64,000 nucleotides of DNA from an uncultured Methanosarcinales archaeon (GTDB taxonomy: Archaea > Nanobdellota > Nanobdellia > Woesearchaeales > GW2011-AR9), in assembly GCA_964527395.1 (NCBI GenBank), contig CAZGQD010000001.1, positions 3,000 to 66,999 on the forward strand, in the 5' to 3' direction. The notes beneath the pieces are model-generated. The model did not search any database. It had not been told where the DNA came from and saw nothing but the letters and a program-made list of their open reading frames with translations. A program made the position numbers and the translations under genes. Below, in pieces: positions 2,186 to 56,342 of this stretch. Within the stretch, counting starts at the first letter, position 1. Every line of letters begins with the position of its first letter.

Positions 2186-3025
2186 TTACTTAGCTGCTTG
2201 TGCTTCTTGTTGTATTTTTTCAATTGCTTCTTTGAGTGGTGTTATTGGAACACCTTGCCAGTTGTCTGGTCCGTTGTATCTAGCATGTTCTTCTGCTTCA
2301 GGACTGTAGAAAATTAAATCTTCTAGAAGAGTAATATCTCTTGTGTGTAAGTCTAGTTCAGAAACAGTTTGGTATAGACACTTATTAATGAATCCTCCTC
2401 CAATTAGTAGCTGTCTATTGGCAAAGGCAAAAGCTTCATTAGGAAATTGAAGATCTCCTTTATCTGCTTTAGTAACTATAACTCTATCAACTAAACCTTG
2501 TTCGACTAAGTGTGCTGTCCCAAAAGGATAATGATCTGCTGTTTCAAATACTACTCTTGATAATCCTAAGGTTTTTGCTTGTTTTAGAGTTTCAATACTT
2601 TTTTTGCCAATATCTCTAACTTCTTCCCTATATCTTCCTGAACCAGTTCTGTAGTGACATATTTGTGCATAAAATGGATGAACAAAAGCTAAAACTTGAT
2701 TTTTGAGAGGAGTTTGGATACAGTTATTGTTGTATGCGTGAGCAAGAGTTAGGTTTAAAGTACTTGTTCCAGATTCGCTATTATAGTTTGATCTACTTGT
2801 TTTTCTGTTTTTTGCTCTAGCTTCAAGCAAATCTCTGAATGGTTTGAAAAAAGGTGGAATTGATAATCTTGGTGAAAGTGGGAGACCTAAAGTTTCGTGG
2901 AGTTCAGGATCATAAGTAGTTATCCGCGAGCAAGCTCTTGGAAATCCTTGATTTCCAGATGCATAATGCTGAGCATTCTGCACTCTTGGGACTTGCTTTG
3001 TATACTCATCAAGTATTTGAGACAT
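2186..3025 (-). CDS. Hypothetical protein (start moved to internal ATG; carries a hairpin repeat element in frame)
   Basis: Long ORF. ATG at 3025 sits about 28 nt downstream of a minus-strand TATA (cttttataaaaaaa, 3047-3059). No family recognised. Confidence 0.5.
   Translation of the reverse strand: MSQILDEYTKQVPRVQNAQHYASGNQGFPRACSRITTYDPELHETLGLPLSPRLSIPPFFKPFRDLLEARAKNRKTSRSNYNSESGTSTLNLTLAHAYNNNCIQTPLKNQVLAFVHPFYAQICHYRTGSGRYREEVRDIGKKSIETLKQAKTLGLSRVVFETADHYPFGTAHLVEQGLVDRVIVTKADKGDLQFPNEAFAFANRQLLIGGGFINKCLYQTVSELDLHTRDITLLEDLIFYSPEAEEHARYNGPDNWQGVPITPLKEAIEKIQQEAQAAK
2923..2996 (+). repeat. Family B hairpin element, triple-hairpin variant, inside the minus-strand ORF 2186..3025
   Basis: tccgcgagcaagctcttggaaatccttgatttccagatgcataatgctgagcattctgcactcttgggacttgc aligns with 8606-8682. 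Read through as ..HYASGNQGFPRACSRI... Confidence 0.7.
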
Positions 3026-7150: not shown

Positions 7151-7414
7151 TAGAAATCCTCAAACGGGGCGAGGCCAATGTCGAGCAAAGCTCTCCTAGC
7201 TTATTTATCCTCAAAGATTTTTCGGGACTTGACTATTCGCCAAGTTTCCAAGGAAAAATAAATGAAGAGGCTCTTCTCCGCGTTCATGGAAACCAAGGCT
7301 TTCCAGACGCATAATCAAAGATTTTGCATTCGTTCGTACCTCACTCAGGTCGAATGATCAAGCTCTATTGAAGAAGGTCTCTTTTTTGCGTAGGCGCCCC
7401 CGAGAGGATTTCTA
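7151..7414 (+). repeat. Long composite hairpin element (family L, full-length copy), closed by an 11-bp outer helix and a GGGGCG/CGCCCC inner helix
   Basis: tagaaatcctc (7151-7161) pairs perfectly with gaggatttcta (7404-7414), and ggggcg (7165-7170) pairs with cgcccc. The interior holds module 7171-7216 (also in the radB 5' region) and a family B double hairpin at 7283-7332. Confidence 0.7.
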
Positions 7415-8605: not shown

Positions 8606-8682
8606 TCCGCGAGCTTTGCTTATGGAAATCAAGGATTTCTAGATGTAGAATAAAGAATTTTGCACTTCTAGGACTTGGTTGC
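8606..8682 (+). repeat. Family B hairpin element, triple-hairpin variant (intergenic copy)
   Basis: tccgcgagctttgcttatggaaatcaaggatttctagatgtagaataaagaattttgcacttctaggacttgg aligns along its length with 2923-2996. Confidence 0.7.
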
Positions 8683-8744: not shown

Positions 8745-9022
8745 GAGGGTTTAAATTGGTCAAAACTGTAAAAACGAGCTTTAAATTGGCTAAATCAGTA
8801 AAAATGGCTTCCTTTTGCTCTAAAACGGTCAAAATGATCTTTAAATTGAAAAAAGAGGCTAAAATTGGCTGTTTTTGCTCTAAAACGGTCAAAATGATCT
8901 TTAAATTGAAAAAAGAGGCTAAAATTGGCTGTTTTTGTCCTAAAACGGTCAAAATGATCTTTAAATTGAAAAAGGAGGCAAAAATGACCTCTAAAGTGAA
9001 AAAGAAGGGAAGTGGTTTTGTG
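8745..9022. repeat. Tandem repeat array, 60-bp period (two near-identical units plus degenerate flanking units)
   Basis: Units 8821-8880 and 8881-8940 differ at about one position, and 8941-8985 is a third partial unit. Each contains GGTCAAAAT sub-motifs. The array ends with gaaaaagaagggaagtg followed by a TATA box. Confidence 0.85.
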
Positions 9023-10920: not shown

Positions 10921-11026
10921 CGCTTTGCTTATGAGGTTATCGCAGGCGTGACCACTCGCTTTGGATTTTGCTCTTGTTGGTCGCAAAATGCTCGTTAATA
11001 TGGTCTTGTTTTGGATGGGATTGCCA
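10921..11026 (+). repeat. Family A structured repeat, copy A1
   Basis: Core atcgcaggcgtgaccactcgctttggattttgc...gcaaaatgctcgtt...ttgccagtagggga is shared with the copies at 20.3, 21.4 and 25.8 kb. Confidence 0.75.
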
Positions 11027-11098
11027 GTAGGGGACTGTGTTAATCTTTTATTTGTAATTTCTTTTTGTATGTGTTGAGTTTGTCTAGAATTTGGTGGT

Positions 11099-20269: not shown

Positions 20270-20458
20270 GTACGTATTAAGTTACATTTTATATCTGAAG
20301 ACAGTACCGTCAGGCTTACTGCAGGCGTGACTACTTCGCTTTGAATTTTCCAAATCGCTACTTGGAAAAATGCTCGTTGTTTAGGTCTTGTGTTGAATGA
20401 GAGTGCCAGCAAGAGGACGGTGCTGTCTTCATAATAATTAACGTAACTTAATACGTAC
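20270..20458 (+). mobile_element. Family A repeat copy A2 carried on long hairpin arms: perfect 16-bp terminal inverted repeats flanked by an 8-bp direct repeat (MITE-like)
   Basis: gtacgtattaagttac (20270-20285) is the reverse complement of gtaacttaatacgtac (20443-20458). gtatttga occurs immediately outside both ends (20262-20269 and 20459-20466). The core gcaggcgtgactacttcgct...tgccagcaagagg lies between ~41-nt imperfect arms. Confidence 0.7.
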
Positions 20459-21348: not shown

Positions 21349-21524
21349 GAGAATTGTGGGTATCAGACTTAACTTCAAGCAAGCTTTCGGAACTTAGTTC
21401 ACATGTTCACTAAGTATCGCAGGCGTGACCACTTCGCTGTGATTTTTCCACTTTGTGAAAAAATGCTCGTTGTTTAGGTCTTTTGTTGGAGGGGAGTGCC
21501 AGTGAGGAGATACCCACAATTCTC
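21349..21524 (+). repeat. Family A structured repeat, copy A3, closed by a perfect 16-bp copy-specific helix
   Basis: gagaattgtgggtatc (21349-21364) pairs with gatacccacaattctc (21509-21524). Core atcgcaggcgtgaccacttcgctgtgatttttcc...gaaaaaatgctcgtt...gtgccagtgagga. Confidence 0.8.
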
Positions 21525-23589: not shown

Positions 23590-23790
23590 GAATCGGGAGA
23601 AATGAAGGTGCTTTTTGGCTAAATCGATAATATTTGCTTTCTTTTGGTCTAAAACGGTAATTTTGAGCTTCTTTTTGGTTTTAATGGTAAAAATGAGCTC
23701 TATTTGGCAAAAGGAGGTCAAAATTGTCTGCTTTTGGTGTTTAGCGGTCAAAATTGCCTGCAAATTGAAAAAGAAGGGAAGTGTTTTAGA
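23590..23790. repeat. Degenerate repeat array related to 8745-9022 (GGTCAAAAT-type units), ending with the same gaaaaagaagggaagtg motif before a TATA box
   Basis: ggtctaaaacggtaattttgagc, ggtcaaaattgtctgc and ggtcaaaattgcctgcaaattgaaaaagaagggaagtg resemble units of the 8.8-kb array. Confidence 0.65.
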
Positions 23791-25317: not shown

Positions 25318-25635
25318 TTAATATTTCCATTTACTGTGGCCGAAGGCTATGAATAAATCGAAACCTTTGACGTTTGGAGTGTCACAAGCACCATAACAGT
25401 CTCCTGCCCAGAATGTGATGTTTAAAGTAGGGATTGCTTTTAGAAGTTCTTCTTGGATTTTGTTTGCTTTTGGTTTTAAGCCGTCTGGAAGTTGAATTAG
25501 AACTGTTTTAGGATTCTTGGAAACAGAGTTTCCAGACGCAAAATTAGAAGATTTTGCATTTTCTTCTTTGATTTTTTCTATAGCTTTGTCTAGCTCTAGG
25601 TTCAATTCTAAGTGAGTTTTGATTGCTTCTGACAT
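25318..25635 (-). pseudogene. dph2: Diphthamide synthase Dph2, N-terminal ~100 aa only (truncated or split), with a 14-aa repeat-element insertion
   Basis: AK..KTVLIQLPDGLKPKANKIQEELL...GDCYGACDTP...FDLFIAFGHS matches domain 1 of archaeal Dph2 (AKRVLIQSPEGL...YGACD...LIHLGHS). The ORF stops right after GHS, whereas Dph2 is normally ~330 aa. Confidence 0.6.
25514..25560 (+). repeat. Family B double-hairpin element inside the Dph2 fragment (in frame)
   Basis: ttcttggaaacagagtttccagacgcaaaattagaagattttgca has hairpin 1 ggaaac/gtttcc and hairpin 2 gcaaaat/attttgc. It corresponds to the extra SSNFASGNSVSKNP. Confidence 0.75.
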
Positions 25636-25752: not shown

Positions 25753-25879
25753 CTTTACGCTCATCAGACTTAGTGCAGGCGTGACCACTGCGCTGTGATT
25801 TTGCTTCCGTTGGTCACAAAATGCTTGTTGTTAGTTAGATGTGTTGAGTGGGATTGCCAGTAAGGAGATGAGCGTGCAG
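25753..25879 (+). repeat. Family A structured repeat, copy A4
   Basis: Outer helix ctttacgctcatc / gatgagcgtgcag. Core agacttagtgcaggcgtgaccactgcgctgtgattttg...caaaatgcttgtt...ttgccagtaagga. Confidence 0.8.
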
Positions 25880-32493: not shown

Positions 32494-32612
32494 GAAGTTT
32501 GTTGAAATAATTTTGGAAAGATGATTTTTTCAAGTTGAATAAAAAAATTGCTCAAATAGTGAACTTTGAGAAGCAATAGATAAGATTATTGGTGACATTG
32601 AGGGTGATAGAA

Positions 32613-33608
32613 ATGAATAAATCCAAAAATAACATAATAATATATCAAAATATTGATGGAAAATCAGATATTTTTGTGAAAATTAAAAATGAAACAGTTT
32701 GGTTAACTCAGGCTCAAATGGTTGATTTATTTAATTCAAGCAAATCAAATGTTAGTGAGCATATTAAACATATTTTTGAAGAAGGAGAATTGAAAAAAGA
32801 ATCAGTTGTTCGGAAATTCCGAACAACTGCCTCAGATGGTAAAAATTACAATATTGAACATTATAACTTAGACATGATTATTTCATTAGGATATCGTATT
32901 AAATCATCAATTGCCACCAAATTTAGACAATGGGCTACTAAAAGGTTAAGAGAATACATTGTTAAAGGCTTTGCGATGGATGATGAACGGCTTAAAGATC
33001 TTGGTGGTGGTAATTATTGGAAAGAATTACTTGATCGGATTCGAGATATTCGTTCAAGTGAGAAAGTTTTGTATCGTCAGGTTCTTGATTTGTACGCAAC
33101 AAGCACAGATTATGACCCAAAATCTTTGCAATCAATAGAGTTTTTCAAAATTGTTCAAAATAAGCTTCATTTTGCAGCCCATAGCAATACTGCCGCTGAA
33201 ATGATTTTTAACCGTGCTGATGCAAAAAAAGAATTTATGGGCTTAACTACATTTAAAAGGAATATTCCTGTTAAGTCTGATATTGTAGTGGCAAAAAATT
33301 ATCTTTCTAAAAATGAATTGAAGATACTCAATAATATCGTTTCTGCATTCTTTGATCTGGCAGAAGTTAAAGCGATGAATCAACAAGCAATGGGAATGAA
33401 AGATTGGATTACTCAACTGGATCGATTAATTAAGACATTTGATAAAGATATTCTAGCTGATGCTGGCAAAGTAAGCCATAAAAAAGCTATTGCAAAAGCA
33501 GAAAAAGAGTACAGAAAATATCAAGTGAGAACATTATCTCTTGTTGAAAAAGCATATTTAGATAATATAGTGGACATTCAAAAGAAAGTGAAAAATAAAG
33601 CAAAATAG
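32613..33608 (+). CDS. rhuM: RhuM-family virulence-associated protein
   Basis: IIIYQNIDGKSDIFVKIKNETVWLTQAQMVDLFNSSKSNVSEHIKHIFEEGEL and ISLGYRIKSSIATKFRQWATKRLREYIVKGFAMDDERLK are characteristic of RhuM. Confidence 0.85.
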   Translation: MNKSKNNIIIYQNIDGKSDIFVKIKNETVWLTQAQMVDLFNSSKSNVSEHIKHIFEEGELKKESVVRKFRTTASDGKNYNIEHYNLDMIISLGYRIKSSIATKFRQWATKRLREYIVKGFAMDDERLKDLGGGNYWKELLDRIRDIRSSEKVLYRQVLDLYATSTDYDPKSLQSIEFFKIVQNKLHFAAHSNTAAEMIFNRADAKKEFMGLTTFKRNIPVKSDIVVAKNYLSKNELKILNNIVSAFFDLAEVKAMNQQAMGMKDWITQLDRLIKTFDKDILADAGKVSHKKAIAKAEKEYRKYQVRTLSLVEKAYLDNIVDIQKKVKNKAK

Positions 33609-33754: not shown

Positions 33755-33844
33755 GTGGTAAGTTACGTTAAAATTTGTGGTATTGATCATTTAGAAGATG
33801 CTCTTACTGCAATTCATTATGGAGCAGATGCATTAGGTTCATGA
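33755..33844 (+). pseudogene. 5' fragment (29 codons) of the TrpF-like gene, cut off by stop codons supplied by a hairpin element
   Basis: GTG about 25 nt downstream of tttataaa (33724-33733). (M)VSYVKICGIDHLEDALTAIHYGADALGS* is the canonical PRAI N-terminus (VKICGI..ED...A...GADA.G). Confidence 0.7.
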
Positions 33845-33889
33845 AAATTATAAATTTTCAGACGCAGAATTAAAAAAATTCTGCATTTT
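33839..33889 (+). repeat. Family B double-hairpin element interrupting the TrpF-like gene
   Basis: Hairpin 1 is gaaaat-tataa-attttc (33843-33859) and hairpin 2 is gcagaat-taaaaaa-attctgc (33864-33884). In-frame TGA at 33842 and TAA at 33851. The downstream ORF resumes in the same frame at GTG 33890. Confidence 0.8.
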
Positions 33890-35833
33890 GTGATAACAGA
33901 ATCTAGAGATAATCCAATTAGAAGGGAAAAATATCAAAAAATAGTAACACAAACTCCTTCTCATATAGATACTTATTTGGTTACTACATTTACTGATTAT
34001 GGTACATTGTCTAGTTTGATTAGTGAAATTGGTTTTAGTGCAGTTCAATTGAATGTTGATGCTAGAAAAGGTTCTGGACAAATAGAAGATATTTCAATTG
34101 AAGATATTCAAAAATTGAGAGAAAATTTTCCTGATTTGAAAATAGTTAAGGGAATTGTAATAAATTATGAGGTTGAAAAAGGAGTTAGTCCAATTGAGTA
34201 TGGCGAGAGATTTCTACCTTATGTGGATAATGTTCTTTTAGATGCAGTATCTGTTGATGATAGTGGAAGATTACTTTTCATGGAAACTGAGGGTTTCCAG
34301 ACGCTGCTCTCAGCAGCACATGGAGGAACAGGGATTACATTAGATTGGGATGATTGTAGAAGATTTGTTGATCAATATGGTTTTGATGCTAATAATTCCA
34401 GACAAGTAATCTTAGCAGGGGGTCTAAATAGGCATAATGTTCAAGAAGCAGCAGCAAAAACAGGAGTTATGGGAGTTGATGTACAATCAGGAGTTGGAAA
34501 GTGGAGAAAGGATTATTTGTTACTTGAAGATTTTCTAAAAAATGCTAAGAGTAGGGAAGCTCAGAGAAGAGTAACAACTGGAATGACATTTAAGGATTTA
34601 GCTGAAAATTTGCCGGTTTTACCTAGACAACACCTATTTAGAGAAAGAGAAGAGTACTTAAGTTCAATTTCTGATTTAGAAACATTCAGAAGAGCTCTTT
34701 ATTTTTCACAAAGAACTGATGCTGTTGGAAGACCAAGAATTAATGAGGAAGAATGGGGAAGAGTAGCTTCTAAGTTAGGAGATTTGGCTGATATTGTTGA
34801 AAGAAATACAGCAAGACATGCAGGAGATGTAGTATTCAGGTCGAATAATTATTTCTTAGGACATACACTATTTGGAATATTTGGAGAAGAAGCAAAAAAA
34901 GAAGGAGAAAAAGTTGCAAGCGAAATTGATTTAAGATTTAAAGAAAATGAGGGTTTGATAGCTAAATTAGCTTCAAAAGGAGAAATTTCTAGGGATATTA
35001 ACTTACAAATACCTATATTTAGTGTTTTAGATCATCAAAAGCAGTACGCATTACTTTTAATGAAGAATGTATATACTGCAATGAGAAAGGCTGATAAAGC
35101 TGGAAAAAGACCTGATGAGGTAATAAGTAGAGAAGATTTTGATACTTTATTTCAATTATGTCAAGATACAGTTTCAGTTGCATATAGGTTTATTCTTACT
35201 GGAGAGGTTATTCCAATTGATTATAAAAGTGATTTTGTTGAAAAACTCACAAACAAGTTAGAATTTAGTGATTGGAAAGATTCTTGGAGAGAAATGGATG
35301 ACCCTGCTAAAATTCTTTTATATACTATAAATGCTATGCAAAATCTTGAAAGAGAAGTAGATTTGATAGTAAATCCTTTCTCAGGAGGGATGGAGTTAGG
35401 GTATGCTTTTAGAGGAATTACTGCAGCTTTAGGAAAGGATGTTGTTAGAGATGTTTTGCTGCTGAAGTTTTCAATGCATGGTGATGGAGATGACTTAGTT
35501 GATTATCCAAAAGAGCAATGGTTTGAAAAACTTGTAAGTGGAGGGATTCCAAGATTAATAAGAGATGAGGCAAGAGGAAAATTATTGGTTAATCATGGAT
35601 TAATAATTGATGATAATACTACTTCTAAAAGTACACTAGCACAAATTAGAGAAGCTGTTACTAGTAAGGGAATTAATCAAGGAAGATATGGGATATGTGC
35701 TATTGAAATAGGAAGGTTAGATAAAGTGAATTTTGATGAAACAATTCTTACTGATTTAGAATTTGAAGCGATAGGTGATAGGATGAGTGAAAAGCATAAA
35801 ACTGGATTAGTAGCAGAATCTCTTAAAATATGA
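33890..35833 (+). CDS. Fusion protein: PRAI (TrpF)-like TIM barrel, central helical region, C-terminal type I phosphoribosyltransferase domain
   Basis: GGTGITLDWDD...VILAGGLNRHNVQEAA...GVDVQSGVG are TrpF C-terminal motifs, and GLIIDDNTTSKSTLAQI is the type I PRT PRPP-binding loop. Same frame as the 33755 fragment. Confidence 0.7.
   Translation: MITESRDNPIRREKYQKIVTQTPSHIDTYLVTTFTDYGTLSSLISEIGFSAVQLNVDARKGSGQIEDISIEDIQKLRENFPDLKIVKGIVINYEVEKGVSPIEYGERFLPYVDNVLLDAVSVDDSGRLLFMETEGFQTLLSAAHGGTGITLDWDDCRRFVDQYGFDANNSRQVILAGGLNRHNVQEAAAKTGVMGVDVQSGVGKWRKDYLLLEDFLKNAKSREAQRRVTTGMTFKDLAENLPVLPRQHLFREREEYLSSISDLETFRRALYFSQRTDAVGRPRINEEEWGRVASKLGDLADIVERNTARHAGDVVFRSNNYFLGHTLFGIFGEEAKKEGEKVASEIDLRFKENEGLIAKLASKGEISRDINLQIPIFSVLDHQKQYALLLMKNVYTAMRKADKAGKRPDEVISREDFDTLFQLCQDTVSVAYRFILTGEVIPIDYKSDFVEKLTNKLEFSDWKDSWREMDDPAKILLYTINAMQNLEREVDLIVNPFSGGMELGYAFRGITAALGKDVVRDVLLLKFSMHGDGDDLVDYPKEQWFEKLVSGGIPRLIRDEARGKLLVNHGLIIDDNTTSKSTLAQIREAVTSKGINQGRYGICAIEIGRLDKVNFDETILTDLEFEAIGDRMSEKHKTGLVAESLKI
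34277..34323 (+). repeat. Family B double-hairpin element, second copy inside the TrpF-like gene (open, in frame)
   Basis: ttcatggaaactgagggtttccagacgctgctctcagcagcacatgg has hairpins ggaaac/gtttcc and gctgc/gcagc. It lengthens the segment between LLD and GGTG relative to typical TrpF. Confidence 0.7.
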
Positions 35834-51271: not shown

Positions 51272-53260
51272 TTATCTTCTTCTTCTACCGTTTGGAGATG
51301 ATCTTTTTCTTTTTGTTGAAGTCCATTCTGATGCTCCACTTGGCGATCTTGGATTTTGACTAGTTCCACCTCTGGTTTTTGTGGTAACTCTTCTATGTGA
51401 GTCTGATTTGCCATTTGGTGTTAACCATGTTTCTTTTTGCCTTTTTCTTCTTTCTTTTTCATGATTTGGAATAGCATAGTCAGGGGCTAAGACTTTAGAA
51501 CCGTCTGAGATGTGTTCTGTCGTGAATCTTTTGTATCTTGAAGAATGTTTTTCTTTAGCAGATAATTCTTTACTTAGTTGTCTAGCTATTTTTGCTTTTA
51601 TAATGGAATCTGCTGAGAGGTCAGTTATTTCTTTAGTTATTTTTTCAGTTAACCTTAATAGGTTTTCAGCGCTTCTTTTGATGTTTTTTGCTTCTTGAAG
51701 ATTTTTATTGATGCTTCTTTTGATGTGTGGAGGATAATCTTTAGAGAGTTTATCTTTTTTCTCAGCAAGTTTTATAGCTTTATCAGCGTCTTTGATGCAT
51801 TGATTTATTGCTTTTTTAGTGTCATCTCTAGATTTTCTTGCAGCTTTTAAAGTAGCTCTGGTAGCAAGTGCATATCTTTTTGCGTTTTCAGCATTTGTTG
51901 TATGGTTTGGTTCTTTATTTTGGATGCTTCTTAAGAATAGTAAGATCCCATTATGGAAAAGTTTTGTTTTTTCTTTTTCGAAAGAAACTTTTTTTGAATG
52001 TATAATTGCTTTTGTTTTACTTTGTTTTGCTAAGTTAACAAATTTTTCTACTCTATTAGCTCTACCTTTTGCAAATCTTTCTTTGTAAGTTAACCTTTTG
52101 GCAGCTTTAGCTTCTGCTTGCGCTGCTAGTTTTCTGATTGTAGCCAAATCAGCTATTCTTTCTGCAGCAATTCCTCTTTCTCTTGCTGCGTTTGCTTTTA
52201 GAGTGTCTAAAACTTTTCTCATCTCTGCAGCTTTAGCAGCTGCTTTGTGACTATCTTTGTTTCTTTTAGATTCTGCTTGCGCTTCTTTAGCTAATCTTTC
52301 TTGTTCTTTTGCTAATCTTGTAGCTTCCTCTGCCGCTATTTTTGCAGCTTCTGCTGCTGCTTGTGCTTTTTCTGCTGCTTCTTTTGCTGCTATAGCTGAG
52401 TCTCTTTCTGCCTGTGCTGCTGCTTGTTCTTTTCTTGCAAATTCTGTTTCTGCTCTTGTTGCATCTCTTTGTGCATTTTGATTATCAGTTTCTTCTTTAG
52501 CTAATCTTGCAGCTTGCTCTGCTGCTGTTCTAGCTTCTTCTGCATCTCTTTGAGCTTGCTGCGCAGCTTGTCTTCTCAAATCTGCTTCTGTTGCAGCAGC
52601 TTGTGCATCTTCTAAAATTTTGTGTGCTTTAGAGATTGCATCTTCGAGAAAAGAATCTTCAATTTCTTTTTTTAATTCAAGAATTTGATCTGTTTTTTCT
52701 TTAGCTAAGGATTTTTGTTCAATTGCATTGTTAACATATCCTTGTAATGTGTCTATGACTGTAAGAAAATCAGGCTTGTCAATATCAAAATTAGTGCTTG
52801 TTCCAATAGCATCTACAATAGCTTTTGATTGAGTAGTTTGATTCGATGTTTCTACTTCATGTTGTTTTACTAAGAGGTTAAGTTGATTTATTCTTTCTAA
52901 TTTTTGTCTGATTGCAGTATTAACATCATTTTTATTTATAGAATAAGTAGAAGTTGTTGCATCATTTGCAATTTTTGATAGAATAATTACTGTTTTTTGG
53001 GCAGCTCCAGCAGCAATGATCAAATTTTTAACTTTGATTAGGACAATTTCTTCTGCTTCTTTTTTTGTAGCTTTTGATGCTTTGATGATGTTAACGATAT
53101 CTTCTTTAGTTTTGTCTGCTTTATTTGATAAAAGTTCTGAAATTTCTGCGTGGGATTTTGTTTCTTCAAGTTTTTGCATAGCTAAAGTAGCGTTGATTCT
53201 AGCTTCAGTGGCCAATTTCACAATAGGTTTTCTAGTTGCCATTTTATTTGAAATATTCAT
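51272..53260 (-). CDS. Long Ala/Glu/Lys-rich coiled-coil protein with Arg/Lys/Ser-rich C-terminal tail
   Basis: AAQQAQRDAEEARTAAEQAARLAKEE...AAKEAAEKAQAAAEAAKIAAEEATRLAKEQ. Its start overlaps the upstream stop (ATGA). Confidence 0.55.
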   Translation of the reverse strand: MNISNKMATRKPIVKLATEARINATLAMQKLEETKSHAEISELLSNKADKTKEDIVNIIKASKATKKEAEEIVLIKVKNLIIAAGAAQKTVIILSKIANDATTSTYSINKNDVNTAIRQKLERINQLNLLVKQHEVETSNQTTQSKAIVDAIGTSTNFDIDKPDFLTVIDTLQGYVNNAIEQKSLAKEKTDQILELKKEIEDSFLEDAISKAHKILEDAQAAATEADLRRQAAQQAQRDAEEARTAAEQAARLAKEETDNQNAQRDATRAETEFARKEQAAAQAERDSAIAAKEAAEKAQAAAEAAKIAAEEATRLAKEQERLAKEAQAESKRNKDSHKAAAKAAEMRKVLDTLKANAARERGIAAERIADLATIRKLAAQAEAKAAKRLTYKERFAKGRANRVEKFVNLAKQSKTKAIIHSKKVSFEKEKTKLFHNGILLFLRSIQNKEPNHTTNAENAKRYALATRATLKAARKSRDDTKKAINQCIKDADKAIKLAEKKDKLSKDYPPHIKRSINKNLQEAKNIKRSAENLLRLTEKITKEITDLSADSIIKAKIARQLSKELSAKEKHSSRYKRFTTEHISDGSKVLAPDYAIPNHEKERRKRQKETWLTPNGKSDSHRRVTTKTRGGTSQNPRSPSGASEWTSTKRKRSSPNGRRRR

Positions 53261-54597
53261 GTAATGTCATTTACACATTCTTCTGTTTCTTGAGCGTAAT
53301 GTTCAGCAGCACCTGCAGCAGCTTCAGCAATTTGAACATATCTTTCAACTCTGGAGTTTGCTTCTTGTGCTTCATTTAATTCTTCATCTGTTGGACCATC
53401 TGAAGGGTCAGGTTCAGGTTCTTCTGGATTTCTTGTATCATTATCATCAGGGTCACTTGGGAAACCAGGTTGTCTTATTCCTCTACCAATTGGTCTTTTA
53501 GCTCTTGGAGGAGTTCTTGATCTGTCTGGGTCATCATCATTTCCTGGTGGAGTCCTTCTACGTCTTCCTCTAGGCGGGTTAGGTCCTCTTGTACCGTCTT
53601 CATTGTCATCATCCTCACCAGGGTTGCTTTGATCTCCAGGTTGTCTTATGTTCCTATTATCGCCTCTTCTTCTGCCCCTTCTAGGGTTTGGGTTTCTTGA
53701 ACCGTCTGGGTCATCATCTTCATGATCGTCATTTGGTGGAGTTCTTCTTCTTCTTTCTCGACCAGCATCTGAACTGTTGTCTCTTGGATCGCTACCTCTT
53801 CTACCAGATCTTCCATCTCTGGAACCATTAGATGCATCTGAACCGTCTGCTCCATCTCTACCATCAGCGCCATCCCTACCGTCAGCTCCATCTCTTGCAT
53901 TATTGTTTGGAGGTAATTGTTCTTCATCTCCCATGTCTCTGACAATGATTTCGTTAGCTTTTTTGATGAAGTCGTCAATTTGGTCTATAATATAAGCACA
54001 AAAGTCTTCAACTTTTTTGATATTTGCTTGTAATGTAGTTACTTTTCTTCTGTAACTGTTAGCAGTAGCTTTTGGAATCTTTTTATGGCAATGTTTTACG
54101 TAGAATTCTAAGGCATGGTCACAAAGAGTGTGAACAGCTGAAAGGGCTTTATTAATTGGATCTCTAGTTAGTCTATGTGAAACTCTTACATTCCTTCTAG
54201 CTTCTTGTAATTTGTTTCTAATCCTGCTGGAAAGAGATTTTGCTTCATTCGTAGTTGAATCATCTTTCTTTTTAGATAGAACTTCAGTTCTTAATTCACG
54301 ACAAAGAGCGATAACTTCTAAAAGTTTTCTTTTTGCAATCATAAGATATTTCTTACGCATTTCTAATTTGTCTTTTTTTTTTTTTGTCTTTTTTCTTTTT
54401 TTGTTCCACTTTTTGAAGTCTTTTTCAGCTTGTTTTGCTTTTTCTTCTTTTTCATTTTTTTCTGCTTGAGTTTCGAATGATAAGAATTGGAAGAAATACC
54501 AAGCTGTGGCTAAAAAAGCAAAACCAATAGCTACATGTAAGAACTCAACTACTGTACCCCCCACTACCAGAAAGCCTATTAATTCCTCTGCTGTCAT
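53257..54597 (-). CDS. Membrane-hairpin protein, paralog A: TM hairpin, Lys-rich segment, helical domain, long R/D/G/N/P low-complexity tail, short helical C-terminus
   Basis: Start placed at MTAEELIGF by homology with 55425..56342. The first ~222 aa are nearly identical to the paralog. The tail has RDGADG x3 and two ~50-aa RRRRTPP...IRQPG modules. Confidence 0.55.
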   Translation of the reverse strand: MTAEELIGFLVVGGTVVEFLHVAIGFAFLATAWYFFQFLSFETQAEKNEKEEKAKQAEKDFKKWNKKRKKTKKKKDKLEMRKKYLMIAKRKLLEVIALCRELRTEVLSKKKDDSTTNEAKSLSSRIRNKLQEARRNVRVSHRLTRDPINKALSAVHTLCDHALEFYVKHCHKKIPKATANSYRRKVTTLQANIKKVEDFCAYIIDQIDDFIKKANEIIVRDMGDEEQLPPNNNARDGADGRDGADGRDGADGSDASNGSRDGRSGRRGSDPRDNSSDAGRERRRRTPPNDDHEDDDPDGSRNPNPRRGRRRGDNRNIRQPGDQSNPGEDDDNEDGTRGPNPPRGRRRRTPPGNDDDPDRSRTPPRAKRPIGRGIRQPGFPSDPDDNDTRNPEEPEPDPSDGPTDEELNEAQEANSRVERYVQIAEAAAGAAEHYAQETEECVNDIT

Positions 54598-54805
54598 ACT
54601 TGAAAATCGCCTCTTTTGAAATTTTGATAAGTGATGTTGAGCTATACTCAACGCAGTTAATTTCCGTACATTTTCATATACTAATATTAACTGCGTTTCG
54701 AGATACTGAACGAGTGCAAATGATTGCATGAAATGTTCGATTATTTTGTTCGTTCAGTATATTCGTTTTGATCAAAATAGTTTAGTGAATAATTGTGATC
54801 TGTTT

Positions 54806-55424: not shown

Positions 55425-56342
55425 TTAGTCTTCTCCTCTTCTATTATTAGCAGGTCTTCGTCTTACAATTGCTGCTGGTCTTCCAGGTCTATTTGTATTT
55501 CTTGCTCTTGAATCGTTTGTGCCATTTGTTTCGTCGTTTCCATTTCTGCCATTTCTACTGTTAGTTCCGTTCCTATCATCAGCTCCATCAGTACCATCTC
55601 TTCCGTTGTTCCCATCATCTGTGTCGTTATCAGATCCACTTCTATTGTTGCCTGGAGGAACTGTTTCTTCACCATCCATATCTCTTACAGTGATTTCGTT
55701 AGATTTTTTGATGAAATTGTCAATTTCTCTTACAATATAAGCACAATAATCTTCAACTTTTTTGATATTTGCTTGTAGTGTAGTTACTTTTCTTCTGTAA
55801 CGGTTAGCAGTGGCTTTTGGAATCTTTTTATGGCAATGTTTTACGTAGAATTCTAAAGCATGGTCACAAAGAGTGTGAACAGCTGAAAGGGCTTTATTAA
55901 TTGGATCTCTAGTTAGTCTATGTGAAACTCTTACATTCCTTCTAGCTTCTTGTAATTTGTTTCTAATCCTGCTGGAAAGAGATTTTGCTTCATTTGTAGT
56001 TGAATCATCTTTCTTTTTAGATAGAACTTCAGTTCTTAATTCACGGCAAAGAGCGATTACTTCCAAAAGTTTTCTTTTTGCAATCATAAGATACTTTTTA
56101 CGCATTTCAAGTTCGTCTTTTTTCTTTTTTGTCTTTTTTCTTTTTTTGTTCCACTTTTTGAAGTCTTTTTCAGATTTTTTGGCATTTTCTTCTTTTTCAT
56201 TCTTTTCTTCTTGAGTTTCGAATGATAAAAACTGAAAGAAATACCAGGCTGTGGCTAAAAAAGCAAAACCGATAGCTACATGTAAGAACTCAACTACTGT
56301 GCCTCCTACTACTAGAAAGCCTATTAATTCCTCTGCTGTCAT
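55425..56342 (-). CDS. Membrane-hairpin protein, paralog B (shorter N/G/R/D-rich tail)
   Basis: About 0.67 kb (55675-56342) is near-identical to 53930-54597. Confidence 0.55.
   Translation of the reverse strand: MTAEELIGFLVVGGTVVEFLHVAIGFAFLATAWYFFQFLSFETQEEKNEKEENAKKSEKDFKKWNKKRKKTKKKKDELEMRKKYLMIAKRKLLEVIALCRELRTEVLSKKKDDSTTNEAKSLSSRIRNKLQEARRNVRVSHRLTRDPINKALSAVHTLCDHALEFYVKHCHKKIPKATANRYRRKVTTLQANIKKVEDYCAYIVREIDNFIKKSNEITVRDMDGEETVPPGNNRSGSDNDTDDGNNGRDGTDGADDRNGTNSRNGRNGNDETNGTNDSRARNTNRPGRPAAIVRRRPANNRRGED

Follow-up and report, generated by a model that had tools for sequence, protein, structure and literature searches.

Contig CAZGQD010000001.1 (assembly GCA_964527395.1) was analyzed over a stretch of 64,000 nt, hereafter the window. 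At 25318..25635 this window carries a short open reading frame (ORF) on the minus strand that encodes the N-terminal half of a split diphthamide synthesis protein, Dph1/2. The ORF is interrupted, in frame, by a 45-nt palindromic element consisting of two adjacent hairpins, and copies of the same element occur elsewhere on the contig and in related lineages. The contig is archaeal, as judged from its aEF-1alpha, S10, S2, and RadA genes and from the split Dph2 itself. It was assembled independently by JGI, ENA, and Logan from several marine samples, with its sequence unchanged across them. Because these assemblies of different samples carry identical sequence, an assembly artefact is unlikely for the inserts. 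The locus comprises two features:

25318..25635, minus strand: host gene of element copy c25519, 105 amino acids (aa), N-terminal-domain half of a split Dph1/2 (family norm about 84 aa)
25514..25558, plus strand: element copy c25519, a 45-nt insert in the Dph2 N-terminal-half gene, with tail TTCT and final A

The host ORF translates as MSEAIKTHLELNLELDKAIEKIKEENAKSSNFASGNSVSKNPKTVLIQLPDGLKPKANK...FGHSKWKY*, and its insert region reads ..ENAKSSNFASGNSVSKNPKTVLIQLPDGL... The Pfam profile PF01866 (Diphthamide_syn) aligned to residues 49-102 at profile positions 1-56 of 302, with a score of 29.8 bits (gathering threshold 33.2). Among 5.8 billion proteins searched, 335 homologues of 79-115 aa were found, nearly all of them between 79 and 96 aa, from metagenome-assembled genomes (MAGs) labelled 'Woesearchaeota', 'Nanoarchaeota' or 'archaeon'. 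These proteins have a common C-terminal end (..FGHSxW(K/R)Y), and the profile of this ~84-aa family matched residues 7-84 of the solved archaeal Dph2 structures 6q2d, 6bxm, and 3lzc. Only domain 1 of the full three-domain radical-SAM Dph2 (~330 aa) is present. No C-terminal Dph1/2 half was found within the 64-kb window, and the ORF downstream of 25318..25635 is unrelated to Dph2. In several DPANN archaea, the N-terminal and C-terminal domains of Dph1/2 are encoded by separate genes (Narrowe et al. 2018, PMC6143161). A truncated Dph2 pseudogene was considered for the 105-aa ORF and rejected, because the homologues share their C-terminal end and the split gene is published. Judged by sequence, the host gene is the N-terminal half of this known split Dph1/2, neither a full Dph2 nor a pseudogene.

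On the plus strand, positions 25519-25557 read GGAAACAGAGTTTCCAGACGCAAAATTAGAAGATTTTGC, i.e. GGAAAC-AGA-GTTTCC-AGAC-GCAAAAT-TAGAAG-ATTTTGC. Hairpin 1 extends from 25518 to 25534 (TGGAAAC-AGA-GTTTCCA) and is followed by the spacer GAC; hairpin 2 occupies 25538-25557 (GCAAAATT-AGAA-GATTTTGC). The DNA folds with -10.3 kcal/mol (z = -5.0). On the gene strand the element is read in reverse complement as KSSNFASGNSVSKNP, and the frame stays open, just as a first-pass annotation of this DNA had described for a two-hairpin 'family B' element on the plus strand within a minus-strand gene.

Comparison with orthologues defined the insertion. A clean 45-nt gap is found at this position both in the closest orthologue, located on a TARA contig (L007, ~88% nt identity), and in GCA_018658095.1 (L008). 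On the gene strand, AATGCAAAATCTTCTAATTTTGCGTCTGGAAACTCTGTTTCCAAG separates AAAGAAGAA from AATCC in the window, whereas in L007 AAAGAAGAA is directly followed by AATCC. A 3-nt repeat (AAT on the gene strand, ATT on the plus strand) leaves the exact boundaries ambiguous; the phase common to the other copies places the insert at 25514-25558 (TTCTTGGAAAC...GATTTTGCA). The first-pass annotation had proposed a hairpin repeat of 14 codons inserted in frame into a conserved block of Dph2. The in-frame insertion is borne out by the gap, but it comprises 15 codons, and the host is the 105-aa N-terminal half rather than a full-length Dph2.

In the protein alignment, KSSNFASGNSVSKNP appears between the ..IKEEN turn and KTVLIQLPDGL in the window sequence only and is absent from 23 of 23 aligned relatives. 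An unrelated loop of the same length in close relatives, which would have spoken against an insertion, was not seen, as the relatives lack any sequence at the insert position. One relative, P0021, has a 5-aa extension in the loop where the insert falls; the others are gapless there. While this extension would be in line with ordinary loop-length variation that resembles the repeat by chance, such a reading is contradicted by the exact gap against a ~88% identical orthologue and by the recurrence of the family nine times, with strong profile E-values and no pattern matches in shuffled sequence (see below). Given the exact gap, the profile matches, and the shuffle result, we regard chance and ordinary loop variation as excluded.

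An AlphaFold2 model based on the family alignment (104 residues, mean predicted local distance difference test score, pLDDT, of 68) showed a helix at residues 14-29, a coil, and a strand at residues 43-47. The insert corresponds to approximately residues 27-41, i.e. the C-terminus of the helix plus the coil, a position equivalent to the one where solved Dph2 turns from its N-terminal helix into beta-1 (..INKKGA|RTVGLQFPEGL..). A surface-loop location of the insert is plausible from this model, which puts it in coil between helix 1 and strand 1, but at low confidence (pLDDT ~51, parts below 50). Peptides predicted from genic element copies by conceptual translation include SSNFASGNSVSK and LLFMETEGFQTLLSAAHGGTGITLDWDDCR.

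Further copies were sought in ~84 kb of this contig and in fragments of relatives. An nhmmer profile detected six copies in the window, starting at 2935, 7283, 8619, 25514, 33838, and 34277, all on the plus strand (E = 2e-13 to 6e-8). No additional copy was found in the window at E < 0.01; a reverse-strand match with E = 0.016 is the palindromic echo of the copy at 2935 itself. A seventh copy lies 9.4 kb upstream on the contig (L043:570-617, plus strand), and none occurs in the 10.7 kb that follow the window's right end. Together with independent copies in two related lineages (L007:814-844 and L037:18358-18402), the family comprises nine members. The pattern GGAAAY-N3-6-RTTTCCAGAYGC matched three times in the window versus no match in 100 shuffles. 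A looser structural scan (hairpin, AGACGC-like spacer, hairpin) gave 19 matches compared with 7-23 in shuffles and was replaced by the sequence profile.

The first-pass annotation had called for a census of copies and had named the absence of further ones as an argument against its reading. On the contig such copies exist: seven in ~84 kb, on one strand, with four of the seven inside ORFs. Scans of sequence collections produced chance matches only. The 8 matches in genome_contigs and 18 in metagenome_contigs were all single matches in unrelated bacteria, without hairpin 2, and viral_contigs yielded none; the lineage of the window is evidently absent from the genome, metagenome, and viral contig sets that were scanned. 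Rfam gave no match over the whole window at the gathering threshold, nor around the Dph2 site at E <= 1, and the window contains no tRNAs. Three of the window copies lie in its first 9 kb:

2935..2982, plus strand: copy c2940, a 48-nt core within a longer shared unit at about 2918-3010, flanked by the 7-nt direct repeat CTCTTGG
7283..7328, plus strand: copy c7288, lying between genes or at the 3' terminus of a doubtful ORF of 90 aa; hairpin 2 degenerate, fold z = -2.5
8619..8664, plus strand: copy c8624, intergenic and degenerate; long form as in c2940, fold z = -1.0

The typical unit of 42-48 nt consists of a 4-nt tail (TTCW or YTYW), hairpin 1, a GAY spacer, hairpin 2, and a final A. Hairpin 1 (TGRAAAY, a 3-6-nt loop, RTTTYCA) has a stem of 7-9 bp and measures 17-22 nt in all. 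Its pairing over the nine copies is 98.4%, two pairs have compensatory changes (G-C in five copies versus A-U in four; U-A/A-U/C-G), and its covariation score was reached by none of 500 shuffles. Hairpin 2 begins and ends with GC in every copy and otherwise varies in sequence; its arm pairs are GCAAAAT/ATTTTGC, GCAGAAT/ATTCTGC, GCTGCT/AGCAGC, GCTGC/GCAGC, and GCCATTTAAAATT/AATTTAAAATGGC. Single-stranded DNA folds contained both hairpins in six of eight copies (z = -4.8 to -6.0). Insert lengths were 42, 45, 46, 48, 61, and ~93 nt. In a long form of ~80-90 nt, c2940 and c8624 have ~20 nt in common to either side of the core (TCCGCGAGC...core...GGGACTTGCTT; also GGACTTGGTT).

Four of the seven contig copies are located within ORFs and three are intergenic, as is the copy of L007. 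ORF 2186..3025 reads copy c2940 in reverse complement, close to its N-terminus, as ..QHYASGNQGFPRA..; the ASGNQGF of this ORF shares its element-relative frame with the ASGNSVS of the Dph2 insert, as had been pointed out earlier. Copy c7288 would supply the doubtful 90-aa ORF with its ..VHGNQGFPDA end and its stop codon.

Reciprocal empty sites document recent mobility of the element at four sites, each with orthologous empty counterparts: the Dph2 N-terminal-domain gene, two positions in a gene for a phosphoribosylanthranilate isomerase (PRAI) fusion protein, and a position upstream of S10. The Dph2 site is filled in the window and empty in L007 and L008. The position immediately upstream of the S10 start codon carries a copy in L007 but none in the window or in L008. 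The PRAI-fusion gene carries two copies:

33755..35833, plus strand: PRAI-fusion gene with two element copies; gene callers report 33890..35833 (647 aa) and a 42-aa upstream ORF
33838..33885, plus strand: copy c33843, a 48-nt insert between GADALG and FVITE of the PRAI domain, present in the window only
34277..34318, plus strand: copy c34282, 42 nt, in frame and stop-free (FMETEGFQTLLSAA), between the LLDA and GGTG motifs of PRAI

Copy c33843 reads S*KL*IFRRRIKKILH; its length is a multiple of three, but it contains an in-frame TGA and an in-frame TAA. It severs the first 28 codons (33755-33844) from the rest of the gene, while the downstream ORF of 647 codons is intact. The site is empty in P0122/L036 (87% aa identity, GADALG-FVITESRD uninterrupted) and in L037 (72%). 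The simplest reading of c33843 is a recent disruption that removed the first 28 PRAI codons including the KICG strand. Copy c34282 is common to the window and L036 and absent from P0124/L037 (72% identity). All 42 of its nucleotides are identical to L036:914-955, against 86-89% identity in the flanking coding sequence; possible causes are constraint on the element and gene conversion or recombination. The number of copies in the PRAI-fusion gene across three lineages is 0, 1, and 2, and L037 carries a separate open copy of 45 nt inside an ORF of 1107 aa. For ORF 2186..3025, the sole homologue (P0126/L039, 59% identity) starts with MPQNLTYDPE, where the window has MSQIL, 31 additional residues, and TYDPE. 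The N-terminus of this ORF would fit a long-form insertion of ~93 nt, the homologue being only 59% identical. Genic inserts thus measure 45, 48, 42, 45 (L037), and ~93 nt, all multiples of three, and four of the five are open in the frame in which they are read.

Two readings in which the element is not a selfish mobile sequence translated with its host were weighed against these data. First, the element might act at the RNA level, as a mini-intron that is removed or a segment that is bypassed in translation (byp-like), leaving proteins unaltered and the stop-containing PRAI copy harmless. The two in-frame stops of c33843, combined with a length divisible by three and an intact downstream ORF, would agree with this, and so would the perfect identity of c34282 between lineages with diverged flanks. 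Yet the copies lie in both orientations relative to host genes and in only one relative to the chromosome, and three of the contig copies and the L007 copy are intergenic. In RNA folds, two hairpins stood side by side and the boundaries lacked a bulge-helix-bulge motif, on which ground an intron was rejected; translational bypass was rejected as well, since matching take-off and landing codons are missing. With no Rfam match in addition, we consider an RNA-level explanation very improbable.

Second, the element might serve the host as a cis-acting signal, such as a small RNA, a terminator, or a protein-binding site, and be retained wherever it brings a benefit. On the plus strand, a T-rich run frequently comes after hairpin 2 (ATTTTCTTCTTT, ATTTTGTG), orientation is uniform, and the copy in the middle of PRAI is strongly conserved. 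Clean indels within coding regions, one of them truncating a gene, are difficult to reconcile with such a role; moreover, it is the intergenic copies that are degenerate, and position relative to gene ends is inconsistent. This makes a host signal improbable too, if slightly less so than removal or bypass of the element.

Some further features of the PRAI locus were observed. The PRAI (TrpF-like) domain is fused to ~430 residues that end in a phosphoribosyltransferase-like motif (GLIIDDNTTSKST), and the fusion family consists of only 4 clusters among 5.8 billion proteins. In one member, P0123, the C-terminal third resembles the P0124 lineage and the N-terminal part resembles the window, and these mosaic matches therefore suggest recombination between lineages. 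Directly upstream lies a RhuM-family gene (32589-33608; PF13310, E = 1e-105). Neither a RhuM nor a PRAI gene is found in the 20 kb of L008 that were examined. At the RNR-CobA end of the syntenic block shared with the window, L008 carries other genes, in a flank that is not necessarily the corresponding position.

We conclude, with a probability of roughly 0.7, that the copies form a family of palindromic mobile elements that are short and non-autonomous, hosted by a marine DPANN archaeon of the Woesearchaeota/Nanoarchaeota type and similar to repetitive extragenic palindromic sequences (REPs) and Rickettsia palindromic elements (RPEs). According to this proposal, new copies would land between and inside genes. 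Genic copies would persist if their length is a multiple of three, their frame is stop-free, and the site is a surface loop, and would then add 14-16 residues to the protein (31 for the long form); the Dph2 half would have gained 15 residues between helix 1 and strand 1. We infer that the insert is translated, that the protein tolerates it, and that the element is mobilized in the way proposed below.

Strand orientation bears on the mechanism. In nine of nine independent copies (the seven contig copies, all on the plus strand, and those of L007 and L037), the GGAAAC..AGACGC strand of the element is on the G-rich strand, whereas host genes of the copies run in both directions. GC skew of the plus strand is +0.37 in plus-strand genes and +0.065 in minus-strand genes. 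Over the whole window (1-64000) the skew is +0.24, and a G excess of ~0.2 on one strand is independent of genes. The strand bias points to asymmetry of the replication strands and not to transcription, with the direction of replication deduced from skew. Because all copies are on the same strand whatever the direction of the host gene, insertion probably takes place on single-stranded DNA at the replication fork. Single-strand transposition of the IS200/IS605 type was reportedly tied to replication strand asymmetry by Ton-Hoang et al. 2010, and the bias observed here agrees with that. The agent could be a trans-acting HUH/Y1 transposase (IS200/IS605-type, or a REP-associated tyrosine transposase, RAYT) encoded elsewhere, or else template switching guided by microhomology.

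When the 5' tail of the element was compared with the 7 nt following it, 30 of 56 positions matched (expected 15.6 +/- 3.4, p ~5e-5). The match is perfect over 7-8 nt at c2940 and in L037, and covers 2-3 nt at two resolved empty sites. Repeats of such irregularity would be in keeping with template switching guided by microhomology as well as with an unusual transposase.

Several observations weigh against the explanation proposed here. The copies cluster in the first ~44 kb of the ~84 kb, so that a single replichore segment underlies the strand bias. Repeats at the flanks are irregular (2-9 nt). A common left tetranucleotide, as required by canonical IS200/IS605 elements, is missing at the two best-resolved empty sites (TTAGGA|TTTTC and TTAGG|TTTTG), and left flanks are heterogeneous over all copies; the canonical IS200/IS605 target rule was accordingly dropped. 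Hairpin 2 varies, and that of L007 appears to derive from a duplicated and inverted target: the target sequence, approximately AAAATGGCA, occurs three times; the left flank and the 3' arm of hairpin 2 have it in direct orientation, and the 5' arm of that hairpin has it inverted. Standard transposase models do not predict this. No transposase was detected in ~84 kb of the contig by Pfam searches of ~40 window ORFs and in precomputed gene tables of the flanks. Finally, the census is that of ~84 kb plus fragments of relatives, and scans of collections gave chance matches or none.

These points bring in a transposase-independent scenario, in which a nascent strand switches by microhomology to an existing copy and back, and quasipalindrome correction keeps the arms complementary. 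It would account for the irregular flanking repeats of 2-9 nt and the significant resemblance of the 5' tail to the downstream flank, for variable insert lengths, for the inverted and direct target copies in hairpin 2 of L007, for the lack of a transposase in ~84 kb, and for the strict strand bias. On the other hand, most copies have defined ends (TTCW... ...GCA) that are more regular than is usual for template switching, and the argument draws on nine copies only. We regard it as a possible but distinctly less probable account than a mobile element family. Another reading, which we put forward tentatively and hold to be rather unlikely, is an insertion mechanism not described before, in which only hairpin 1 and GAC are carried between copies, and each new site forms its own hairpin 2 out of target sequence copied once inverted and once directly, as seen upstream of S10 in L007. 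A target-built hairpin 2 would explain why this hairpin is variable yet always paired, why flanks are irregular, and why there is a single orientation relative to replication. Linked to it is the possibility that the stop-containing PRAI copy is neutralized at the RNA or translation level. The insertion mechanism might be new to science.

A finding in the wider clade speaks for a Y1 enzyme. In L039, a wider-clade contig whose host gene is 59% identical to that of the window, an IS200-like Y1_Tnp gene (L039:225-870; PF01797, 108 bits, 145 aa) interrupts the homologue of ORF 2186..3025 and splits it into pieces of 82 and 216 aa. Both ends of this insertion sequence carry CCCC(A/T)GGCTAAA(A)GCC hairpins (GGCTAAAGCC). 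One end reads TGGCTAAAAGCCAGACAC, a hairpin followed by AGAC, comparable to the TGGAAAC..GTTTCCAGACGC of the element.

Elements that behave in this manner are known from Rickettsia, RPEs being reportedly the subject of Ogata et al. 2000. The likeness to RPE-4 and RPE-6 concerns a dispersed palindrome that occurs in frame in unrelated conserved genes and contributes a short peptide at positions tolerated by the fold; the present copies likewise appear, by sequence, to be in-frame insertions in conserved genes at fold-compatible sites. In both cases some genes are hit twice, the host has a reduced genome and is host-dependent, and CGTC abuts a conserved hairpin, here on the C-rich strand (GCGTC-TGGAAAC...). 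Di Nocera et al. 2013 (PMC3733652) identified the Rickettsia elements RPE-4 and RPE-6 as REPs tagged with CGTC. REPs have been found inside genes in several bacterial phyla, sometimes twice per gene, and a dedicated transposase is absent for CGTC REPs (PMC3733652). The RPE analogy made in the first-pass annotation therefore holds at the level of behaviour, i.e. for an in-frame dispersed palindrome with parallels in intragenic REPs and the CGTC-tagged RPE-4/6 (PMC3733652). In contrast to RPEs, the host is archaeal and not alpha-proteobacterial, and the likeness is one of behaviour, sequence homology being unexpected. Classic RPE-1 elements measure ~100-150 nt, versus 42-48 nt with two different hairpins here. 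Compared with RPE-4 and RPE-6, the stem is 7-9 bp with T-A as first pair, then G-C (or A-T), and the tail is WGAA instead of CCA. Orientation is strictly single, and the second hairpin varies from copy to copy.

With respect to the CGTC-tagged REP superfamily as a whole (PMC3733652), GCGTC abuts TGRAAAY on the C-rich strand in six of the nine copies; CATC or ACATC (from AGATGC or AGATGT) replaces CGTC in c2940, c8624, and L043. The combination of an 8-9-bp stem with A/T in the first two pairs, a 4-5-nt loop, and a CCA-like tail was not found when the copies were compared with the text description of that paper. Superfamily members mostly form head-to-head dimers, whereas here a single hairpin 1 is joined to an unrelated hairpin 2. 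Hairpin 1 (17-22 nt) agrees with the general definition of a REP as a palindromic stem-loop of ~20-40 nt (PMC12306157, PMC3733652). That definition also asks for many copies per genome with a common consensus; the count here is seven in ~84 kb of contig. REPs are predominantly extragenic, unlike the four of seven contig copies in ORFs. As in REPs and bacterial interspersed mosaic elements (BIMEs) associated with a RAYT, there is a short multi-copy stem-loop with an unpaired tag by the stem and without terminal inverted repeats of the type found in MITEs (miniature transposable elements with inverted repeats); intragenic copies occur in several bacterial phyla, and a single-strand mechanism would explain the strand bias. 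Unlike in the REP/BIME-RAYT system, no RAYT/Y1 gene in ~84 kb, no REPtron, no fixed target tetranucleotide, and no head-to-head dimers were found.

Elements derived from IS200/IS605, such as palindrome-associated transposable elements (PATEs) or RAYT-mobilized sequences, insert 3' of a fixed tetra- or pentanucleotide without target duplication, which does not apply here. Their replication-related orientation bias does apply, in nine of nine copies, replication direction being deduced from skew only. PATEs derive from hairpin-carrying IS200/IS605 ends, and archaeal MITEs and PATEs are typically 100-400 bp long. As far as we know, neither group has been singled out for coding copies that stay in frame. 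Like the present element, these archaeal sequences (Sulfolobus SM elements, Haloquadratum and haloarchaeal palindrome-associated elements) are small and non-autonomous mobile elements. Archaeal MITEs possess terminal inverted repeats and regular target-site duplications; the element differs, with non-complementary ends (TTCWTGR/YTGCA) and flanks of 2-9 nt. The mitochondrial byp elements of Magnusiomyces and the bypassing in T4 gene 60 are similar in involving hairpin-forming mobile coding inserts of 27-55 nt, some with stops, but most copies here are open, occur in either orientation, and lack matched take-off and landing codons, and no sign of bypassing was seen. In sum, we treat the element, by analogy, as functioning like a REP or RPE, without assigning it to either family.

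Archaeal genomes are known to contain MITEs, and counts of REP-like hairpins exist for their intergenic regions (PMC10969869, PMC12306157), the only space in which archaeal REPs have so far been sought (PMC12306157). Our literature search found no report of in-frame palindromic repeats in archaeal genes. This agrees with the remark in the first-pass annotation that such a feature is not described in archaea, and is weak evidence of novelty.

Other repeats in the window were noted. A second family of ~100 nt (10931-11032, 20310-20409, 21408-21502, and 25764-25865, all on the plus strand and all intergenic) has the conserved blocks GCAGGCGTGACCACT ... GATTTTGC-loop-GCAAAATGCTCGTT ... GGGATTGCCAGTAAGG. 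Structure prediction gives a variable hairpin and, after it, an outer stem plus inner hairpin that show compensatory pairs. Copies were located upstream of the genes for S2 and EF-1alpha and beside the Dph2 N-terminal-domain gene, with no match in Rfam; the family could be an undescribed small RNA or leader. Tandem repeats with a period of 60 nt occur at 8762-8985 and 23591-23784 (3-4 units, 80-84% identical, related units 14.7 kb apart) and overlap in part with short called ORFs. Finally, a 300-nt duplication of 90% identity (53894-54193 and 55639-55938) is located in the neighboring minus-strand ORFs 53257..54729 and 55425..56342, whose products are of low complexity, rich in Asp, Gly, Asn, and Arg, and without a Pfam match.

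For the annotation of MAGs, such inserts create apparent truncations and split ORFs, as in the PRAI gene, and they lengthen dph2, a gene used in the assessment of genome completeness. In-frame palindromic repeats, a behaviour already known in bacteria, would have here their first archaeal (DPANN) example, with unusually clear evidence from presence and absence of copies. The lineages are 72-91% identical and differ by single copies, and insertion sites, target choice, and fate of the inserts can therefore be read from metagenomes. In Rickettsia and a few other bacteria, palindromic repeats that have turned into parts of proteins are a long-known curiosity; an archaeal case would add a second domain, and its occurrence in DPANN would suggest a link between genome reduction and the tolerance of inserts.

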